Positions 3,777 through 27,270 of a stretch of DNA of 27,684 nucleotides are shown in pieces. The notes beneath the pieces were generated by a model. It made no database searches. It was not told the origin of the DNA and saw only the letters and a list, made by a program, of their open reading frames with translations. How positions within the stretch are numbered: the stretch's first letter is position 1; each line of letters starts with the position of its first letter. Where the stretch lies: the IMG/VR virus record IMGVR_UViG_2562617057_000002; one strand, written 5' to 3'. The DNA comes from a virus (Duplodnaviria > Heunggongvirae > Uroviricota > Caudoviricetes). A program made the translations under genes and the position numbers.

Positions 3777-3957
3777 TACTACCCTCGTAATGGTGCGACA
3801 GGTACCAGGTGTTCAGACTGGCGTTGCCAGTATAATTTAGTCTTCTTTAATACAGAAGTGGCTTACAGAATTGTAACCGTCTCATTTAAACCGTCTTTCG
3901 CCTCCCTTTCCTGTTTCCGATACTAATGTCCATTTTCGCAGTAAAGGGACATTTAAG

Positions 3958-8155: not shown

Positions 8156-8311
8156 TTACTCTCTAGATTCGTAGTCTACGAAGACAGCGACCTCCGTCTG
8201 GCCGGTTCGGATTCGTACCTCATAGAGGTCTTTCCTCGTTACCAGTGCCGTCACAATGACGGTTAAACAGATGACGATCAGGGCGATTAACATCGCCTTT
8301 TGCTGCTTCAT
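8156..8311 (-). CDS. hokD: Hok/Gef-family type I toxin (HokD/RelF-like, 51 aa)
   Basis: MKQQKAMLIALIVICLTVIVTALVTRKDLYEVRIRTGQTEVAVFVDYESRE: single TM helix plus conserved Hok C-terminal motif; the ORF track's 70-aa frame is an in-frame N-terminal extension. Confidence 0.8.
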   Translation of the reverse strand: MKQQKAMLIALIVICLTVIVTALVTRKDLYEVRIRTGQTEVAVFVDYESRE

Positions 8312-8569
8312 AGCCTGCTTCTCCTTGCCTTTCGGCACGTAAGAGGCTAACCTACATGTGTCTAGCATGAAATTGGCCTCAGATTAATGTTAAGCGTCTT
8401 GCAGGACGCGTAATGTTAACCGGGGCTTTTCTCTATCTGCCGTTGGTGTTCATGCCCGAGGCAGATAGCCTCAAGCACCCGCAGTCATTCTACTTAACTA
8501 AGATTTCCCTGCAAACCGTTTTTGTCCAGCACAGTAAATATCCAACTAAACCAATGGAGTTCGCTGTAT

Positions 8570-17162: not shown

Positions 17163-17630
17163 TCAAAAATCATTATTGAAATTGTAGTCCATGAGATACT
17201 CATTTTTACAGGAGGGACATTGAGTTTTCGTATATTTATCGCCTTCCTCGATAGGGAAAGGTTGCAATATAGATATTGCTCTCTTCGCAAAACATTCTGG
17301 ACAAAAATACATGGTAATCTTGCCAGAGCTAGTATTGCACTGTCTGGCATACACAATCGTTCCAGTAATCAATTGGCGAGGTTCGCAGTCTTCACTTTGG
17401 AACTTAAACTTTTCTATCTCCGTGAGTTTTGCTTTGAGCGCAGCCTCATTGCTTTTAGAGATTGTCAGCTCATCAATGAGAGACAAATATTCAAGCTGAA
17501 TGCTTGACAACTTAGAGTTTATTTCAGACACAGCGCGATCAACCTCAGCCTGAGTTTTTGCTTCATTGAATAATTTTAACATTGATGCAGTCTCTTTGAG
17601 AGCTGACATCGCTAATGATAGATCAAACAT
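17163..17630 (-). CDS. Hypothetical coiled-coil plus C-terminal zinc-ribbon protein (155 aa from the ATG)
   Basis: Opposite-strand gene in an AT-rich segment of the early-left operon; N-terminal ~85 aa heptad-like helix; C-terminus C-x16-C ... CPEC-x22-CPSC. Confidence 0.55.
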   Translation of the reverse strand: MFDLSLAMSALKETASMLKLFNEAKTQAEVDRAVSEINSKLSSIQLEYLSLIDELTISKSNEAALKAKLTEIEKFKFQSEDCEPRQLITGTIVYARQCNTSSGKITMYFCPECFAKRAISILQPFPIEEGDKYTKTQCPSCKNEYLMDYNFNNDF

Positions 17631-17960
17631 CACTTGCTCACTCTTCTTATTGTTGGGGTATTCAGATTATACAAATTTCTTGTTGTTGGGGAATAACAGG
17701 AACCACCTCGCCTGACGTGGTTAAAAGCAGGCACACAACACGAAAGCGCACGGCGAGGTAGCTGGTCATAGATAGCCTGTCGTTAAATTTTCGCCGACCG
17801 TGCGCTTCCGGTTGTGGCAATCCGCGAAATGGCGCGGCGGTAAGTATGGCGGGGTTTCTCCGTTCCTCGCAAATGTCCACCGGGTTGTCAGGTTGACCAT
17901 ACGATTAAGTGACAACCCGCCACAACATCTCCAGATTGAGTTGTTGGCGATGAAACTTTT

Positions 17961-17992
17961 GGCGGCATCAGTTTTGCTCTGCCGCCCTTTTT
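17961..17992 (+). terminator. Rho-independent terminator-like hairpin inside the long non-coding gap
   Basis: GGCGGCA-N12-TGCCGCC followed by CTTTTT. Confidence 0.4.
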
Positions 17993-18394
17993 AAAGTGAA
18001 TTTTGTGATGCGGTGAATGCGGCTGAGCGCACGCGGAACAGTTAAAACAGTAAGGAAAATCCCTTATTCCGGCGTTAATTGTTAACTGGTTAACGTCACC
18101 TGGAGGCACCAGGCACCGCATCAACAAAATTTATTTAATTAATTATGCGCGAATTAACCGTTATTCGTGCAGGGGATTTCCACACCTGAAATCCGCCGCT
18201 CTTTAACAATATGAACCGGGCTGTCACGTAAACCACAATTCGGGGTGCCGCCGAATGCCCTGATATATCCGCAGAACCGGAACGCAGGGTCGGGATGTGA
18301 CTTTTTGAACAAACCAAACTGGCGGCTTCCGCCACTTGCGAGAAAACTAAATTCAGACTAAATTATAACTCCCAATGAAAAAAGGAACACCCAT

Positions 18395-18628
18395 ATGAAA
18401 ATAGAAACTATCAGCTACATCAAGAAAAACGCAGCCTCACTGGACCTGGCGGAACCCATTCTTGTCACGCAGAATGGTGTTCCTGCATACGTAATTGAAT
18501 CCTATGAGCAGCAACAGGAACGCGAGAACGCTATTGCGTTACTGAAACTTCTCACTATTTCAGAAAACGACAAGTCTGAAGGTCGCGTGTTTTCAAAAGC
18601 ACAGTTGCTGGATAGCTTTAACAACTAA
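18395..18628 (+). CDS. Phd/YefM-family type II antitoxin
   Basis: 77 aa; AAGGA Shine-Dalgarno; Phd/YefM-like N-terminus; 8-nt gap to the toxin gene. Confidence 0.7.
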   Translation: MKIETISYIKKNAASLDLAEPILVTQNGVPAYVIESYEQQQERENAIALLKLLTISENDKSEGRVFSKAQLLDSFNN

Positions 18629-18636
18629 GGTTAACT

Positions 18637-18957
18637 ATGCAGGTTGAATACACACTTACCGCCAGAACAAGCCTTGAGCAAATTGCCGACCATCTCCGGA
18701 GTAACGACATTGACCCACGCCCTGTAATAGCAGAAATTCTTGAGCGATTTGAAACAAGAGTTACTGCATTCCCGTCCGGATGTCAGTTATGCCCGGAGTT
18801 GCTCAAGCTTGGCGTGGCTAAATACAGAGAGTGCAACACACCAGAAGGCTACAGAGTGCTGTACTCTGTCGAGGAGGATATTATCACTGCACACGTGATT
18901 CTTTCCCAACGTCAGGATATTAAACAGTTACTGTTCAGACGATTGATCAGAGTTTAG
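18637..18957 (+). CDS. ParE/RelE-superfamily type II toxin
   Basis: 106 aa; C-terminal GYRVLYSVEEDIITAHVILSQRQD matches the RelE/ParE fold signature; immediately downstream of the Phd-like gene. Confidence 0.7.
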   Translation: MQVEYTLTARTSLEQIADHLRSNDIDPRPVIAEILERFETRVTAFPSGCQLCPELLKLGVAKYRECNTPEGYRVLYSVEEDIITAHVILSQRQDIKQLLFRRLIRV

Positions 18958-19276
18958 CAATTACACATTTAGTAGCGCCCCTGTCCCCACCAGTTCAGGG
19001 GTTTTTGCTTTCTGATATCCGGGATATTGACAAAGCAACCTGCATTGTTGCAAGATGAACGCACTAGAAACAGTTAAGCGGTCATCCGCACCCGATAGCC
19101 TTGCGGCTTTTTTATGCCTGAAATACGGCACATCCGTACAAAGATCGGGTGGAGAGGCGTAATACAATACCCGTAAGGGGAATATGCCCGGAGCTTCTTA
19201 ACTGGCTCTAGTTGACACCCGATCACCAGCTACTAACTGGTAATCGCAGACTAAAACAGTTAAGGAGGCCACTAAA

Positions 19277-19831
19277 ATGGCTACTATCCCTGCCCTTTCT
19301 CACCCTGACGTAACCATCGAAAATGGTCGCGCTGTCACTACGTCTGTTGCTATTGCGGAGTTCTTCGGCAAACGCCACGAACGTGTGCTGGATAAAATTC
19401 GCAATTTAGACTGCTCATCAAATTTTAACGAACACAATTTTGTGTCGGTCACCTACACCGACACCAAAGGCGAAAAACGCCCAATGTACCAAATCACCAA
19501 AAACGGCTTCGTTTTCCTGGTGATGGGCTTCACTGGCAAAAAAGCCGCCGCATTCAAAGAAGCCTACATTGCTGAGTTCGACCGCATGGAGGCCGAACTG
19601 CGCCAGAATAATACCCTGCCCGCTGACAAAATTATCCCGGGAGATGGCCGTACTCTCGTTGTTCACTTCGACGAACACGGCAACATCAGATTCACCGAAA
19701 CCGTTCCTGACGGTGCAATGGTCTGTACCCTGGATACTTTCCAGTTTTATCTGGAAAAACAGGGGTGGGCTCTTGTAAACCGGAGCGCAATTAAAAATAT
19801 GACTGTGGAACAATTACTTTCTTTAAAATAA
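19277..19831 (+). CDS. rha: Rha-family phage regulatory protein
   Basis: 184 aa; AAGGAGG Shine-Dalgarno; N-terminal motif TTSVAIAEFFGKRHERVLDKIRNL typical of Rha N-domains. Confidence 0.7.
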   Translation: MATIPALSHPDVTIENGRAVTTSVAIAEFFGKRHERVLDKIRNLDCSSNFNEHNFVSVTYTDTKGEKRPMYQITKNGFVFLVMGFTGKKAAAFKEAYIAEFDRMEAELRQNNTLPADKIIPGDGRTLVVHFDEHGNIRFTETVPDGAMVCTLDTFQFYLEKQGWALVNRSAIKNMTVEQLLSLK

Positions 19832-19847
19832 AAATGGAGCTACGGAT

Positions 19848-20129
19848 ATGAACCCTATGCTTGATTATTGTTTTACCTCTGCACCTCAGCAGACCATAAC
19901 ACACACCGGAATCAAAAAATTGTTATGGATAATCAAAAAAACCCTCCAGCAGAAAGGTGATCCCGATTTAATTCCCTGTGCTTATGGCCTGTGTGACAGA
20001 CAAGTAAGCCCTGATAAGGCTTACACTGCTGAACTTATTTACATGCACGGAACCATGATGAGGAAAAAGAAACGCAAATATTGTAGTGAAATCTGTGCCG
20101 AAAAAGACCAGATGGCACACGAACTTTAA
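19848..20129 (+). CDS. Hypothetical Cys-containing small protein (93 aa)
   Basis: ORF with GGAG Shine-Dalgarno; scattered Cys (C..C, CSEIC); no family recognised. Confidence 0.4.
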   Translation: MNPMLDYCFTSAPQQTITHTGIKKLLWIIKKTLQQKGDPDLIPCAYGLCDRQVSPDKAYTAELIYMHGTMMRKKKRKYCSEICAEKDQMAHEL

Positions 20130-20203
20130 TTAACTGAATATTCGAAACTGAATTTATGCCAGCAATGGCAGGGATTCACTCAACCTTAAAAAAGGAAACA
20201 GCA

Positions 20204-20500
20204 ATGAGTATTATTGAATGTGAAATTGAACTTGATGTTATTAACGATTCTCTCGCCGAATTTAAATGTGGGAATACATTACATAGTTTCATTCAGATTT
20301 CCCAAAAAGAAAACGTCACGGTAATTATTGATGGCTGTTACGTTCTGAGAACATTTGATTGTTGTGTATGTGCCATTAAAGAAATTGCATTACTCACAGC
20401 TCGCATTGAAGAGGCTGACAAGAAATACGGTATCAGTTATCAACGACTGAAAGAACTCTCTCATATCGCATCATCAGTTCGTTTCTTTTATGCAATCTGA
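20204..20500 (+). CDS. Hypothetical protein (98 aa from MSIIECEI; the track's longer frame starts at 20156)
   Basis: AAGGA Shine-Dalgarno before the ATG at 20204; none before 20156. Confidence 0.4.
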   Translation: MSIIECEIELDVINDSLAEFKCGNTLHSFIQISQKENVTVIIDGCYVLRTFDCCVCAIKEIALLTARIEEADKKYGISYQRLKELSHIASSVRFFYAI

Positions 20501-20603
20501 ATATGAGTTGAGGTTAAAAAACAATGAGCACCGATAAACAAGTTTACCCACTGTATTACGAAGCAAAAAATGACAAAGTAAGAAAACGCCTCGGTATTAA
20601 AGG

Positions 20604-22029
20604 TAATGCCAGTCAGTTAAGCAACTGACTGGCTCTTTTTCGGGGCTGTGGGGTATTTCCAGGGCCTCTCCTTTACCACTCTCGGGAAGGCCCTTTCCCT
20701 TCTCGTCGGTAATTTCACAAGTTGTCCCATACTTGCAAGATCGCGCATCAGCTCCGGTATACGTCCCGGTGAAGCGCCCTGCAATGTCATCAGCATTCTC
20801 ATCACCATTCCGCATGATTCTGAGAAACTCAGTTGATTCGGCCAGTAACCTTTCAGATGTTCCGCCATTTTAATCATCTGATATCTCACCAGATTATAAG
20901 CCAGTAAGACACCCCACAGCTCTTGCTCCACAAGCTCCGGCTTTTTACTTCTCAGCGTCAGCCTGCTCAGTTGCATCGTCTGTTTTATCTCCCTGTATCC
21001 CAGTTCGATTTCCCAGCGATGACTGTACAGATCCGCCATTTCTCCTCCGGGGAAGCGCATGGCGTCCGTCATCGACGTCAGCAGATGGCAGACTTTTCCT
21101 TTGCGCGTCACGGTCAGCAGGCGGGCTGTCACTTCATTTCCCAGTCCCGGCCACTTTTTTCGTGCCTGCGGGCTGGTTTTCAGCTTCACCAGATGATCGC
21201 CTTTACCCAGTTTTCTGAGCTCTTCATATTGCGCTCCCTTTCTGAGAGGTATCATCCAGTGGCGGTGTTCTCCCGCCAGGCTCCAGGCATTTAACAGTCC
21301 CAGTGAGTAATAACCTTTATCCATTAACGTCAGAGTGTTATCGCCGGTTTGTTCTATAAGTTGCTCAGCAAGCTCATTTTCGCTGTTCTTCATCGTGCCG
21401 AAGGCTGCAGCCGTCAGCAGATGGCTGGTCAGTTCCATCTGGCAGACCATTTTGACCTGCGGGTAGAGCGCCGGGTTCCCGGCATGTGTCTGGCGGGGGA
21501 AGGCTGCATCGTTCTCTGGTGTATCCGGTGTGCGCCAGAACACACCATCGATGGCCAGCAGGGTCAGGCCGCACCAGTGCGGATGCGGCGTGGCGTTATG
21601 CCAGAGCTGCGCTGTTTTCGTGAACACGCGGCGGACAGCCTCACTTCCCAGGCGCTGGCGGGCCTGAATAACGGCACTGGGGGCAACGAAGGGGCGATTG
21701 CCCGGCAGCATGATGTCCAGGCGATTCACAATCTGGTGAAGAGGTTCTTTACGCTCAAGCGCCATGCCAACAATACACCAGACCATCATTTCGAGGGGAA
21801 GACGGCGCTTGCGTAGCGTTACAGTACCTGATTCGGCAAGGCAACGAGAGATGAGTTCGGGGTCGAGGTAATCCCCCAGAGAAGTCAGTGGGTTACGCAG
21901 AGAATCGTAACGGGATACCAGATCAAGAGCCTGTCCAATGTGCATAAAAAAATCCGGAAACAAGTGAGCGTTTCCGGATTCTTACACAGCCACTGGATCG
22001 GTCAACTGATCCTTAACTGATCGGCATTA
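20604..22029 (-). mobile_element. IS4 (1426 bp) with terminal inverted repeats and a 12-14 bp target-site duplication
   Basis: Ends TAATGCCAGTCAGTTAAG / reverse complement TAATGCCGATCAGTTAAG; direct repeat CTCGGTATTAAAGG at 20590-20603 and 22030-22043. Confidence 0.85.
20617..21945 (-). CDS. insG: IS4 transposase (DDE; InsG-like, 442 aa from MHIGQALDL)
   Basis: Sequence matches E. coli IS4 transposase as recalled; the track frame extends 6 codons further upstream (to 21963). Confidence 0.9.
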
Positions 22030-23881
22030 CTCGGTATTAAAGGCGGTTTTTACTGGGCTGAAGCGAAAAAATTATCCATTGCCATCTCCCGTGGTGCTGT
22101 TGCGATTGACGATGCAGGCTACGATGAAGATGACTTTAAAAAACCTGTTCACGTCAATTTGCCCGTTGTTGATGACCTCCCGCCAGAAGGCGTGTTTGAT
22201 ACGGAATTCTGCAACCGTTACGAAAAAGGCGGGGAAGATGGCATCACAATGGTATTTATCGCATCTTCTCCCTCTGTTCAGGACAAACCAGCCAGCACTG
22301 ACAATACCAACGTCAACGGCGAAGACATGACAGAAATTGAGGAGAACATGCTCCTGCCAGTTTCCGGTCAGGAACTGCCCATTCGCTGGCTTGCTCAACA
22401 CGGCAGCGAAAAACCGGTAACGCACGTTTCACGCGACGGACTCCAGGCATTACACATTGCTCGGGCTGAAGAACTACCGGCTGTTACTGCCCTGGCTGTT
22501 TCCCACAAAACCAGCCTGCTCGACCCGCTGGAAATTCGCGATCTCCACAAACTGGTTCGTGACACTGACAAAGTTTTCCCTAATCCTGGTAATTCAAGCC
22601 TGGGACTGATAACTGCTTTTTTCGAAGCATACCTGAACGCTGACTACACCGATCGAGGACTGCTGACAAAAGAGTGGATGAAGGGTAATCGTGTTTCACA
22701 CATCACTCGCACGGCTTCCGGTGCTAATGCTGGCGGCGGAAACCTCACCGATCGCGGCGAAGGTTTCGTACACGATCTGACGTCACTGGCGCGCGACGTA
22801 GCCACTGGCGTACTGGCCCGTTCAATGGATCTGGACATCTATAACCTTCATCCGGCACACGCTAAACGCATTGAGGAAATTATCGCTGAAAATAAACCGC
22901 CCTTTTCTGTTTTCCGCGACAAATTCATCACCATGCCTGGCGGGCTGGATTATTCCCGCGCCATCGTGGTTGCGTCCGTAAAAGAAGCACCAATTGGGAT
23001 CGAGGTCATCCCCGCGCACGTCACTGAATATCTGAACAAGGTACTGACTGAAACCGATCATGCCAACCCTGATCCGGAAATCGTGGATATTGCCTGCGGT
23101 CGCTCCTCTGCCCCGATGCCGCAGCGTGTAACAGAAGAAGGAAAACAGGATGATGAAGAAAAACCGCAACCATCTTGCGCAATGGCAGATGAACAGGCAA
23201 CGGCTGAAACAGTGGAACCGGATGCAACTGAACATCATCAGGACACGCAGCCGCTGGATGCTCAGTCACAGGTAAATGCTGTTGATGCGAAATATCAGGA
23301 ACTGCGGGCAGAACTCCATGAAGCCCGGAAAAACATTCCGCCCAAAAATCCTGTCGATGCAGACAAATTACTGGCTGCCTCTCGCGGAGAATTTGTTGAA
23401 GGGATTAGCGACCCGAATGATTCGAAATGGATTCCCGGTCATCATATCTCCTCAAATGAAGTCAAAAAAACGGAAAATGAAGTGCGACAGACCGAAGATA
23501 AACAGCACCAGAACAGCGAACCGGAGGAGGGAACACCCTGCAATCAGACTGGCGAGGATAACTGCCCTGACTGTGGCGCGGTGATGGGAGACGCAACTTA
23601 TCAGGAAACTTTTGACGAAAAAAAACCAGATGAAGCACAGGAAGAAGAGCCGAAGAAAACGGAAAAAGCTGATGATTTGTTACCGGAGAACGCTGGCAGC
23701 GATCAGCATAATGATAGCAATAATGAAACTGGCGAAGATGAACTCAACTGGAAAAGACAGGTGTTGATTGCGGCGGTTTACGGTTTATGTGCGAATCCTG
23801 CGTGCATAGCCTATGCGCCTGCAATCCCTGACATCGCAATGATGATTGCCAACAAGCTTGAAAATTTTGGAGTGACCAGTG

Positions 23882-24178
23882 ATGAGCGCTTACCCGATTT
23901 TTGATCGTATTGAAGAAATGGCATGGGCTCGTCACTACCAGCAGATCGTTCGTGAAGAAAAAGAAACGGAACTGGCGGACGACCTGGAAAAAGGTCTGCC
24001 TCAGCACCTGTTTGAATCGCTCTGCATCGACCATTTGCAACGCCACGGTGCCAATAAACAGGCAATCAGCCACGCATTTGATGATGATGTTGAGTTTCAG
24101 GAGCGCATGGCAGAACACATCCGGTACATGGCTGAAACCATTGCCCACCACCAGGTTGATATTGATTTGGAGGACTAA
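23882..24178 (+). CDS. RacC-like small protein (98 aa)
   Basis: WARHYQ..VREE ... [40 protein letters not shown] resembles Rac RacC as recalled; GGAGTGA Shine-Dalgarno; overlaps the 3' end of the RecE-like gene. Confidence 0.5.
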
Positions 24179-24183
24179 AATCT

Positions 24184-25281
24184 ATGGCGCTTTTTCAACG
24201 AGCAATAAACACACAGGCCTATCTAAAAGCAGGAATTATGGGGTTTGCTGGCGACGGCAAAACCTACACAGCAAGCGAACTGGCTATTGGTCTGGTAATG
24301 CTTATGCGGCAACGGGGAATTGAAGCTGGTAACCGCCCGGTAATGTTTCTGGACACAGAAACAGGCTCTGACTGGGTTAAACCCCGCTTTGATGCGGAAA
24401 ATATCGAATTATTTACGGCAAAAACCCGCTCGTTTGTTGATCTGCTTGAAGCCATTAATGAAGCGGAAAGCAGCGGTTCCGTAATGATCATCGACTCCAT
24501 CAGTCACTTCTGGACCGGATTATGCGACGAGTATGCCAGACGCCGAAACCGTAAACGAGGACTGGAATTTTCAGACTGGGCGTGGCTCAAACAGGAGTGG
24601 CGACGCTTTACCGATCGATTTGTTAACAGTCAGGCGCACATTATTATGTGCGGGCGTGCAGGATATGAGTATGACTTTTTCGAAGGTGATGATGGCAAAC
24701 GCCAGTTGGCAAAAACCGGTATAAAAATGAAAGCAGAAACAGAAACCGGTTATGAACCCTCCATCCTGATCCAGATGGAGAAGCAAATGAACATAGAAAC
24801 CGGTCAGGTGTGGCGCACCGCCAGAATACTAAAAGATCGCTCCACCCGTATTGATGGACAGGTATTTTCAAACCCAACATTTAAAAACTTTCTTCCTCAT
24901 ATCGAGTTTCTTAACCTGGGAGGTGAACACCTCGGCATCGATACCTCACGGGATAACAGTGAATTATTTGCCAACGACGGTACACCGACATGGCTAAAAG
25001 AAAAGCGTGCAAAAGAAATCGCACTTGATGAAATTATCGAGTTGCTCAACAAACACCATGGGGGCACCAGTAACGACGCCAAACGCGCAAAAGCTGATTT
25101 GCTGGAAAAAACATTCACCTCCCGCTCATGGGAAAGAATCAAAGGTATGGACTGGCCGACAATCAAAGCTGGTCGTAATGCACTATGGATTGAACTGGAA
25201 GGCGTTGAATATGCATTCCCGGATCCACAAACACAAAACGAAACGCAACAAGCAGGATACGATGAGAATATTCCGGTGTAA
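24184..25281 (+). CDS. P-loop NTPase, RecA-like/AAA_24 (Sak4-like) candidate recombination ATPase
   Basis: 365 aa; Walker A GFAGDGKT, Walker B-like VMIIDSISHFW; sits where lambdoid phages carry their recombination module. Confidence 0.55.
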   Translation: MALFQRAINTQAYLKAGIMGFAGDGKTYTASELAIGLVMLMRQRGIEAGNRPVMFLDTETGSDWVKPRFDAENIELFTAKTRSFVDLLEAINEAESSGSVMIIDSISHFWTGLCDEYARRRNRKRGLEFSDWAWLKQEWRRFTDRFVNSQAHIIMCGRAGYEYDFFEGDDGKRQLAKTGIKMKAETETGYEPSILIQMEKQMNIETGQVWRTARILKDRSTRIDGQVFSNPTFKNFLPHIEFLNLGGEHLGIDTSRDNSELFANDGTPTWLKEKRAKEIALDEIIELLNKHHGGTSNDAKRAKADLLEKTFTSRSWERIKGMDWPTIKAGRNALWIELEGVEYAFPDPQTQNETQQAGYDENIPV

Positions 25282-25331: not shown

Positions 25332-25520
25332 ATGTATAAAATTACAGCCACTATTGAAAAGGAAGGTGGTTCTCCTGCCAGCTGGACAAGATACTCAAAG
25401 ACAAAACTAACGAAATCAGAATGCGAAAAAATGCTCTCAGGGGAAAAAGAAGCAGGCGCTTCCAGAGAGCAGAAAGTAAAACTGATAAATTTTAATTGCG
25501 AGAAACTTCAGTCCTCGTGA
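25332..25520 (+). CDS. Hypothetical small protein (62 aa from MYKITATIEKEGG)
   Basis: TGGAGGTG Shine-Dalgarno before the ATG at 25332. Confidence 0.45.
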   Translation: MYKITATIEKEGGSPASWTRYSKTKLTKSECEKMLSGEKEAGASREQKVKLINFNCEKLQSS

Positions 25521-26995: not shown

Positions 26996-27120
26996 CCAAA
27001 AAGACCGGAATACAGAAATTCGAGTAAATTTCGGGGAATTTCGGGGGAGACATTTGCAACTAATTGATTTCAAATGCAATTAAAAAAAGACCGAATACGA
27101 TTCCTGTATTCGGTCCAGGG
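26996..27120. repeat. att-arm-like repeat region downstream of int
   Basis: Direct repeats AAAAAGACCG(G)AATAC at 26999 and 27085; tandem ATTTCGGGG x2 at ~27029-27048; perfect 10-bp hairpin GACCGAATAC/GTATTCGGTC (27089-27115) with an adjacent A7 run. Confidence 0.4.
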
Positions 27121-27270
27121 AAATGGCTCTTGGGAGAGAGCCGTGCGCTAAAAGTTGGCATTAATGCAGGCTTAGTTGCCTTGCCCTTTAAGAATAGATG
27201 ACGACGCCAGGTTTTCCAGTTTGCGTGCAAAATGGTCAATAAAAAGCGTGGTGGTCATCAGCTGAAATGT

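Follow-up and report, generated by a model that had tools for sequence, protein, structure and literature searches.

A probable Rip1-family gene in the sieB position of a Rac/Qin-type prophage

The window analyzed here is the whole of a 27,684-nucleotide stretch of viral DNA (Caudoviricetes; IMG/VR record IMGVR_UViG_2562617057_000002). A gene on its minus strand at 17163–17630, referred to below as rip1-like, very probably codes for a divergent Rip1 (ring interacting pore 1) family protein, as judged by sequence comparison and a predicted fold. A first-pass annotation of the window, made from the letters alone, had guessed that this is a defense gene and had stated that no described defense protein has such an architecture. 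The guess is supported by the sequence homology to Rip1. The statement has to be withdrawn: Rip1 (PDB 9oox), reportedly described by Patel et al. in 2026 (Nature 651:1060), has the identical architecture, which was thus already published, and the main surprise of the gene is not new. With this assignment, a "hypothetical protein" of an Escherichia coli Rac/Qin-type prophage is placed in a defense family of known mechanism.

Membership in the Rip1 family

The minus-strand open reading frame (ORF) of 155 amino acids reported by the first-pass annotation corresponds to 17163–17630 in the ORF listing, with an ATG start and its stop codon at 17163–17165; an alternative GTG start is located one codon upstream of the ATG, at 17633. 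The chromosome of E. coli VL40 is 100% identical to the window over 16400–19300, and the identical ORF is annotated in RefSeq as a coding sequence for a hypothetical protein (WP_052327206.1). A search of PHROGs matched the protein to phrog_1244, a family of "unknown function" (E = 2e-35) that also takes in HK446 Rip1 (2e-53), JBD30 gp30 (3e-61), and HK620 HkaP (8e-51). Direct comparisons gave the same picture: phmmer aligned residues 10–147 with residues 21–157 of PDB chain 9oox_L (E = 1.3e-7), and BLASTP identified HK446 gp37 (7e-11, 24% identity) and JBD30 gp30 (2e-9). Homologs with 25%–47% identity were found by tblastn in Escherichia phages PhiR29 and PhiR49, Klebsiella Kp488x prophages, phages HK620, HK629, and HK630 (HkaP), an Stx1a phage, and the Mu-like Rhodobacter phage RcWaterboi, and a protein with 88% identity is present in Salmonella. 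The rip1-like protein belongs to a clade (PhiR29, Kp4882, and Salmonella P0001) that is separate from the HkaP and HK446 clades.

A word-indexed search with the single sequence returned just two matches, and an alignment-based search was required. An alignment of seven sequences was used to collect 51 further relatives, leading to a 48-sequence alignment (A2). The hidden Markov model (HMM) search proposed by the first-pass annotation, run as a profile against 1.84 billion cluster representatives, identified 3,412 proteins with E ≤ 1e-3 and 1,842 with E ≤ 1e-10. Of the best 150 of the 3,412 matches, nearly all are 140–210 amino acids in length and are matched over most of that length, which by sequence makes phrog_1244/Rip1 a large family of single-domain proteins. 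The phrog_1244 match and the 3,412 cluster representatives likewise indicate that the rip1-like ORF is a genuine gene and not a chance ORF. When compared to PDB sequences, the A2 profile produced one strong match, full length, to chain L of 9oox (Rip1; E = 6.5e-27).

The predicted structure agrees with these searches. An AlphaFold2 model built on the A2 alignment has a mean predicted local distance difference test (pLDDT) score of 82. Foldseek comparison of the predicted structure with PDB, another check suggested by the first-pass annotation, yielded significant matches to chains 9oox_L and 9oox_M only (E = 3e-6, probability 1.00, template modeling scores of 0.61/0.73, 119 columns). The fold match covers the long helix, and the next PDB match has an E value of 0.4. 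The 9oox entry, released on 2026-02-04, is titled as a cryo-electron microscopy (cryo-EM) structure of Escherichia phage HK446 Rip1 with the small terminase of Enterobacteria phage T6.

Scans of the protein with Pfam, NCBIfam, and PADLOC produced nothing above threshold and at most sub-threshold zinc-ribbon noise. The silence of PADLOC is uninformative because the 2023 release (PADLOC-DB 2023) has no model that detects Rip1, and bona fide Rip1 and SieB both escape it. The assignment also groups HK620 HkaP with Rip1, together with the whole of phrog_1244 (3,412 representative clusters at 50% identity), in a family that the current Pfam, NCBIfam, and PADLOC libraries miss. Two other identities were rejected. 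For a DksA/TraR coiled-coil zinc finger, there is no Pfam or NCBIfam match even at E ≤ 10, and the spacing between knuckles is 24 rather than that of CxxC-x17-CxxC. For the SieB family, there is no Pfam or NCBIfam SieB match, P22 SieB reaches only −2.4 bits with the family HMM, and the protein has no transmembrane segment.

The AlphaFold2 model has two parts. Helices at residues 4–23 and 27–79 form an N-terminal helical half (residues 1–79; 17394–17630, minus strand), the counterpart of the amphipathic, pore-forming part of Rip1 and presumably similar to it in role (PMC13434031). They are followed by a beta-rich domain (residues 83–148; 17187–17384, minus strand) with a predicted four-cysteine (C4) zinc ribbon. 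This domain is the counterpart of the ring-binding half of Rip1 and has pLDDT values of about 87–93, dipping to 77 at residues 121–130. The domain holds a predicted first zinc knuckle, C110-P-E-C113 (17292–17303), the family signature motif S120-I-L-Q-P124 (17259–17273), and a predicted second knuckle, C138-P-S-C141 (17208–17219), all on the minus strand. Across the 48 family members the cysteines of both knuckles are invariant and the signature motif is invariant or nearly so, for a conserved pattern of CPxC...SILQP...CPxC. The counterparts of the first knuckle are CAQC in HK446 Rip1 and CADC in JBD30 gp30, and HK446 Rip1 has SILQY at the signature motif and CHRC at the second knuckle.

The cysteines of the protein are at residues 82, 98, 110, 113, 138, and 141; the last four are invariant in both the 7-sequence and 48-sequence alignments, and C82 and C98 are not conserved. 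Of the cysteine cluster described in the first-pass annotation, the CPEC and CPSC elements stand, and the first pair is C-x15-C rather than C-x16-C. The coiled coil of ~85 amino acids described there is present as a long helix but not demonstrably as a coiled coil: residues 27–79 do show a heptad-like arrangement of a/d positions, yet the 3.5-residue periodicity is not significant when compared to shuffles. The description "not a membrane protein" is right in that the sequence has no predicted transmembrane segment (the highest Kyte-Doolittle mean over 19 residues is 0.72) and misleading as to function, as the characterized homolog forms a membrane pore (PMC13434031). The N-terminal helix at residues 4–23 is moderately hydrophobic and amphipathic; its mean hydrophobicity is positive, and its hydrophobic moment is about 0.37.

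Rip1 was first found in a prophage of Pseudomonas aeruginosa, between the genes for the small and large terminase subunits, and is not toxic alone (PMC13434031). Phages that escape it carry portal mutations in the case of Pseudomonas phages and small terminase mutations in the case of coliphages (PMC13434031). Cryo-EM revealed 12 Rip1 monomers arranged around an 11-mer ring of small terminase, with the C-terminal half touching the ring and the N-terminal part forming an amphipathic helix; a pore is present in the assembly, which makes liposomes leak dye and perforates E. coli (PMC13434031). Relatives are widespread in Proteobacteria and occur chiefly in prophages (PMC13434031). Two further papers (PMC12908700, PMC13601566) are consistent with this outline.

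The rip1-like protein resembles Rip1 (HK446 gp37, P. aeruginosa Rip1, and the homologs JBD30 gp30 and D3112 orf25) in being a single phrog_1244 protein in the range of ~155–165 amino acids, with a helical N-terminal half and a C-terminal beta domain that carries CxxC...SILQ(P)...CxxC. The genes are alike in being prophage-borne, stand-alone, and antiparallel to their neighbors, and HK446 rip1 shares a block of upstream DNA with the window gene. They differ in setting: the window gene is found in a Rac/Qin-type (dicB-operon) prophage, whereas Rip1 genes are found in lambda- or Mu-like phages. HkaP (HK620, HK629, and HK630) is a member of the same family (25% identity, tblastn E = 2e-10) and shares both the opposite-strand place in the early-left operon and the conserved upstream block, but belongs to another clade. 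In the record for HK620 (NC_002730), hkaP was already labeled "putative superinfection exclusion protein." A literature search found no published functional test of HkaP, the match to this name being a phage-engineering paper that uses the flanking intergenic regions, and a search on PhiR29 and PhiR49 found nothing relevant.

The sieB slot and its upstream DNA

The rip1-like gene is set in a Rac/Qin-type early-left (dicB-type) operon that reads on the plus strand. The first-pass annotation had placed it in a position equivalent to that of sieB, and comparison with the prophage of E. coli ETEC1746 supports this placement: there, an opposite-strand sieB is flanked, like the rip1-like gene here, by the DUF1391 gene ydaF/ydfA and, at the other end, by Phd/YefM-RelE. 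By blastn, homology between the window and the ETEC1746 locus is limited to 16487–16647 and 17982–19818, and sieB lies between these in ETEC1746. The segment that is swapped (16648–17981) contains ydfB, ydfC, the rip1-like gene, a sas-like block, and a DicF-like remnant. Because ETEC1746 carries sieB in place of window 16648–17981 between shared flanks, the sieB slot is, on this sequence comparison, an exchange point for different exclusion or abortive-infection genes in closely related prophages.

Homologs recur on the opposite strand of early operons in HK620, HK629/HK630, HK446, PhiR29, and RcWaterboi, a recurrence that the first-pass annotation had suggested looking for. In HK446, rip1 is on the opposite strand within the pL operon, between ral-like/cIII genes and N, and hkaP of HK620 and HK630 is likewise on the opposite strand, between cIII and hkaQ/N. 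The PhiR29_2 homolog runs antiparallel to cI as well as to the early-left genes, the RcWaterboi homolog (gp10) is antiparallel inside the early operon, and the JBD30 homolog (gp30) is antiparallel and located between the terminase subunit genes.

Conservation extends into the DNA upstream of the gene. A promoter/leader block at 17631–17745 (minus strand) is homologous to DNA upstream of lambda and P22 sieB, HK446 rip1, and HK620 hkaP. By blastn, window positions 17638–17736 share ~76% identity with the DNA that immediately precedes HK446 rip1 and HK620 hkaP, whereas identity between the proteins themselves is only about 25%; across phages, including the regions upstream of lambda and P22 sieB, a block of ~100 nucleotides is 74%–84% identical. 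When window 17631–17770 was compared to the phage collection using blastn, 151 records were matched, among them lambda 34394–34454 and P22 11401–11461, both 30–50 nucleotides upstream of the sieB start codon. In a 2.3-Gb database, the block has E values of 5e-6 to P22 and 3e-21 to PhiR29. No Rfam family covers it.

An alignment of seven loci with differing genes downstream of the block, referred to here as cargos, contains 49 invariant columns (alignment A3; the block spans 1480–1613 in the P22 locus L011, 1480–1596 in the lambda locus L012, and 3815–3945 in the HK446 locus L009). Two copies of CCCC(A/T)ACA(A/G) covary between loci, with a -10-like hexamer between the copies. The window has two CCCCAACAA repeats in the block, at 17683–17691 and 17650–17658, and the hexamer TATAAT at 17666–17671 (minus strand), read from the sequence as a candidate -10 box of the rip1-like gene, aligns with TAAAAT in HK446/HK620 and TAAACT in P22/lambda.

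The other strand of the block resembles a known regulatory RNA. In P22, sas is a cis-antisense RNA that switches translation of sieB from SieB to the inhibitor Esc (PMC12197685, PMC7067206), a finding attributed to Ranade & Poteete 1993 in the passages of these two papers that cite it. The P22 sas RNA has been sequenced at P22 nucleotides 11387–11513 on the minus strand, which is the strand of the pL operon (PMC13397905, Table 2). On the plus strand of the window, 17626–17745 may encode a similar antisense RNA, which would pair with the leader of the rip1-like gene, its ribosome-binding site, and its start codon. This candidate sas-like locus matches the P22 sas region in 64 of 87 columns (74% identity) and overlaps the leader and start codon of its cargo in the same manner, and these alignments establish homology of the upstream block to the P22 sas region. 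The two loci differ in that the cargo is a Rip1-family gene instead of sieB and in that an Esc-like conserved internal start is not seen, neither Met8 nor Met17 being conserved in the family alignment as the start of a truncated product.

The rip1-like gene thus has the slot and orientation of sieB (lambda, P22, and Rac) and, relative to lambda and P22, homologous promoter/leader DNA, and both genes would serve as lysogen-expressed abortive-infection functions. The proteins are unrelated: the SieB-like cargo proteins recovered in this analysis open with a long hydrophobic stretch, unlike the window protein with its lack of a transmembrane segment. That Rip1-family genes in lambdoid phages inherit sieB/sas regulatory DNA provides a testable idea of how phages might avoid triggering their own Rip1. 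The link of Rip1-family genes to the sieB/sas block, and the use of this block by unrelated cargos, is possibly new.

At least four unrelated cargo families occur downstream of the same block. The block precedes sieB in VT1-Sakai, and in Shigella phage SfIV it precedes gp36, which has a homolog in vB_EcoS-569R4 (phrog_5286); the SfIV gp36-like cargo has 144 amino acids (1308–1742 in loci L013 and L015). In Cronobacter phage phiES15 the cargo is an unannotated ORF of 86 amino acids assigned to phrog_8894 (1290–1547 in locus L014). Neither the SfIV gp36-like nor the phiES15 cargo has a PADLOC match; by position, both are candidate exclusion genes. A pattern scan of IMG/VR gave at least 120 matches, mostly due to chance, and at least 35 with the full element, from which cargo counts are indicative only. 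Among the full-element matches listed, at least 27 have a callable downstream cargo ORF: 11 are phrog_5286-like, the commonest cargo among these matches, nine are Rip1-family genes of the window's clade, two are SieB-like, and five are singletons.

We tentatively suggest, as a reading that could well prove too broad, that the block is a conserved socket in enterobacterial lambdoid prophages, in which one strand would supply a sieB-type promoter and leader and the other a sas-type antisense RNA, for unrelated lysogen-expressed exclusion genes that are plugged in downstream (SieB, Rip1-family, phrog_5286, phrog_8894, and singletons). In that case, antisense control of the sas type would give such phages a general means of self-immunity, silencing the abortive effector of the slot when the phage's own early-left operon fires, and the uncharacterized cargos of the slot would be candidate new defense genes. 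The block also offers a cheap sequence handle for finding more exclusion genes.

Proposed action and alternative explanations

By analogy to its characterized homologs, the rip1-like protein is probably a prophage-borne abortive-infection protein that acts by the full Rip1 mechanism. Family membership, the C4/SILQP core, the moron-like placement, and the sieB/sas-type upstream DNA are observed in the window, and the action is carried over from homologs. The repressed prophage would make the protein from its own sieB-type promoter as a soluble and harmless monomer. At the stage of late gene expression, an infecting phage would supply a ring as template, either the small terminase 11-mer or the portal. 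The C-terminal zinc-ribbon domain would bind around this ring so that ~12 copies assemble, and the N-terminal amphipathic helices would open a pore in the inner membrane, with the cell killed or lysed before progeny mature. The upstream block may double as a P22-sas-like antisense locus, such that plus-strand transcription of the early-left operon would shut off translation of rip1-like during the prophage's own lytic growth.

Several observations weigh against this interpretation. Identity to characterized Rip1 proteins is just 24%–27%, and the N-terminus is ~11 residues shorter and less hydrophobic than that of HK446 Rip1, with a modest amphipathic character. Expression in lysogens, the trigger, and the pore activity would be carried over from homologs to the window protein and its clade, and the Rip1 mechanism itself is drawn here from secondary sources (PMC13434031, PMC12908700, PMC13601566). 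The candidate promoter has a perfect -10 box but no recognizable -35 box, and a scan with a promoter consensus called no promoter for the rip1-like gene. A three-helix model of the sas-like RNA (with a possible pseudoknot) pairs 94.5% of cells, but only two pairs change on both sides, two of the three helices never vary, and the covariation score was reached by 54 of 500 shuffles; neither this model nor an RNAalifold consensus has convincing covariation.

The population record adds to these points. The allele is rare, present in four of 5,426 complete E. coli genomes (≥96% identity), and two of the four copies are damaged: the PSJ-22 copy (locus L018, 2501–2971) has two in-frame stop codons, and the RMDEC465 copy (locus L019, 2484–2954) has a 5' deletion that takes the first codons and part of the leader. 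Selection for the rip1-like gene is therefore not strong everywhere. The host prophage is also probably defective, because the VL40 prophage of this region has IS66 and IS2 insertions and several annotated pseudogenes and the window has an IS4-family insertion in recE.

The divergence could also mean that the protein is a Rip1-family member that is wired differently, one that responds to another oligomeric phage assembly or has no known trigger and that may block infection without a pore, for example by sequestering terminase. We consider this unlikely. The low identity to HK446 and Pseudomonas Rip1, the position of the window's clade apart from the HkaP and HK446 clades, and the shorter N-terminal segment would all fit such rewiring, as would the fact that triggers within the family already vary by host, from portal in Pseudomonas phages to small terminase in coliphages (PMC13434031). 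The two-part architecture is nevertheless kept along the whole length of the protein, the helical half is present in essentially all of the best 150 listed representatives, and the fold match takes in the long helix, all of which speaks against such rewiring.

Less probable again is that the gene is a decaying relic of a cryptic prophage and is no longer expressed or active. Decay would account for the insertion sequences in the prophage, the VL40 pseudogenes, the disruption of two of the four E. coli copies, and a promoter that lacks a -35 box. The rip1-like ORF in the window is nonetheless full length, with every family-invariant residue intact. The VL40 and WGI31CT copies are both intact and differ by seven synonymous and eight non-synonymous changes, for a ratio of non-synonymous to synonymous polymorphism (pN/pS) of 0.29. 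The other three E. coli copies carry the upstream block unchanged, apart from one substitution each in PSJ-22 and RMDEC465. These features run counter to a relic.

A small zinc-ribbon nucleic-acid-binding regulator of the early-left (dicB-type) operon, which the C4 zinc ribbon, weak sub-threshold Pfam zinc-ribbon matches, and a location inside a regulatory region adjoining the DicF-like remnant might suggest, is very improbable given the lack of a Pfam or NCBIfam match at threshold or a DksA/TraR signature and given that Rip1, in which the zinc-ribbon half binds to a ring of protein (PMC13434031), is the sole significant relative in sequence and fold.

Other features of the window

The early-left genes are preceded by a gene for a DicA-like helix-turn-helix repressor (15954–16343) and begin with ydfA/DUF1391 (ydaF/ydfA), ydfB, and ydfC on the plus strand at 16511–17044. 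After the rip1-like gene and the gap that follows it, the plus-strand order is Phd/YefM, RelE/ParE, Rha, YdaE, recE, gam, xis, and int. Composition is as the first-pass annotation had described, with a GC content of 0.39–0.40 over 17150–17749 and about 0.50 on either side, and the gap it had noted spans 761 bp (17634–18394) without an annotated coding sequence. Its claim that all other genes from 16511 to 25281 are on the plus strand holds for the native prophage genes, among which rip1-like is the sole opposite-strand gene, but not for the IS4-family transposase (Nterm_IS4 + DDE_Tnp_1) that is inserted in recE and read from the minus strand (20617–21963). The otherwise near-identical VL40 locus lacks this insertion, which explains why the two sequences are offset by 1,439 bp.

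The genes ydfC and rip1-like converge on a 118-bp spacer with a hairpin at 17105–17131 that is a possible bidirectional terminator. The case for a terminator is weak; a scan and inspection gave a terminator-like match on the plus strand (17118–17131) and no clear T-run on the minus strand.

The gap contains a DicF-like remnant that corresponds to the terminator-hairpin part (17951–17987, plus strand; Rfam RF00039, 27.9 bits against a gathering score of 48, E = 0.0014). In WGI31CT and PSJ-22, the rip1-like gene is located between ydfA/ydfB-like genes and dicB. The gap may hold a degraded DicF locus, given the sub-threshold match and the placement of the gene upstream of dicB in these two genomes. 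An adjacent match to STnc100 (17989–18158, plus strand) is also sub-threshold, with 38.9 bits against a gathering score of 47.

Directly after the gap, Phd/YefM (18395–18628) and RelE/ParE (18637–18957) on the plus strand form a type II toxin-antitoxin pair, a second accessory module that also adjoins sieB in E. coli ETEC1746. An Rfam match to sRNA-Xcc1 that is above its gathering score (67.4 bits) is found between the RelE-like toxin gene and the Rha gene (19143–19232, plus strand). Elsewhere in the window, a RalA antitoxin small RNA is located near xis/int (25338–25516, minus strand) in a Rac-like arrangement, and SraC/RyeA and SdsR/RyeB are found at the junction of prophage and chromosome (27078–27222, plus and minus strands). 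A sok antisense RNA is present at 8306–8480 (minus strand), in a region where VL40 has an annotated Hok/Gef family protein, and four tRNA genes (Val, Thr, Arg, and Met) are clustered at 1834–2141 on the minus strand.

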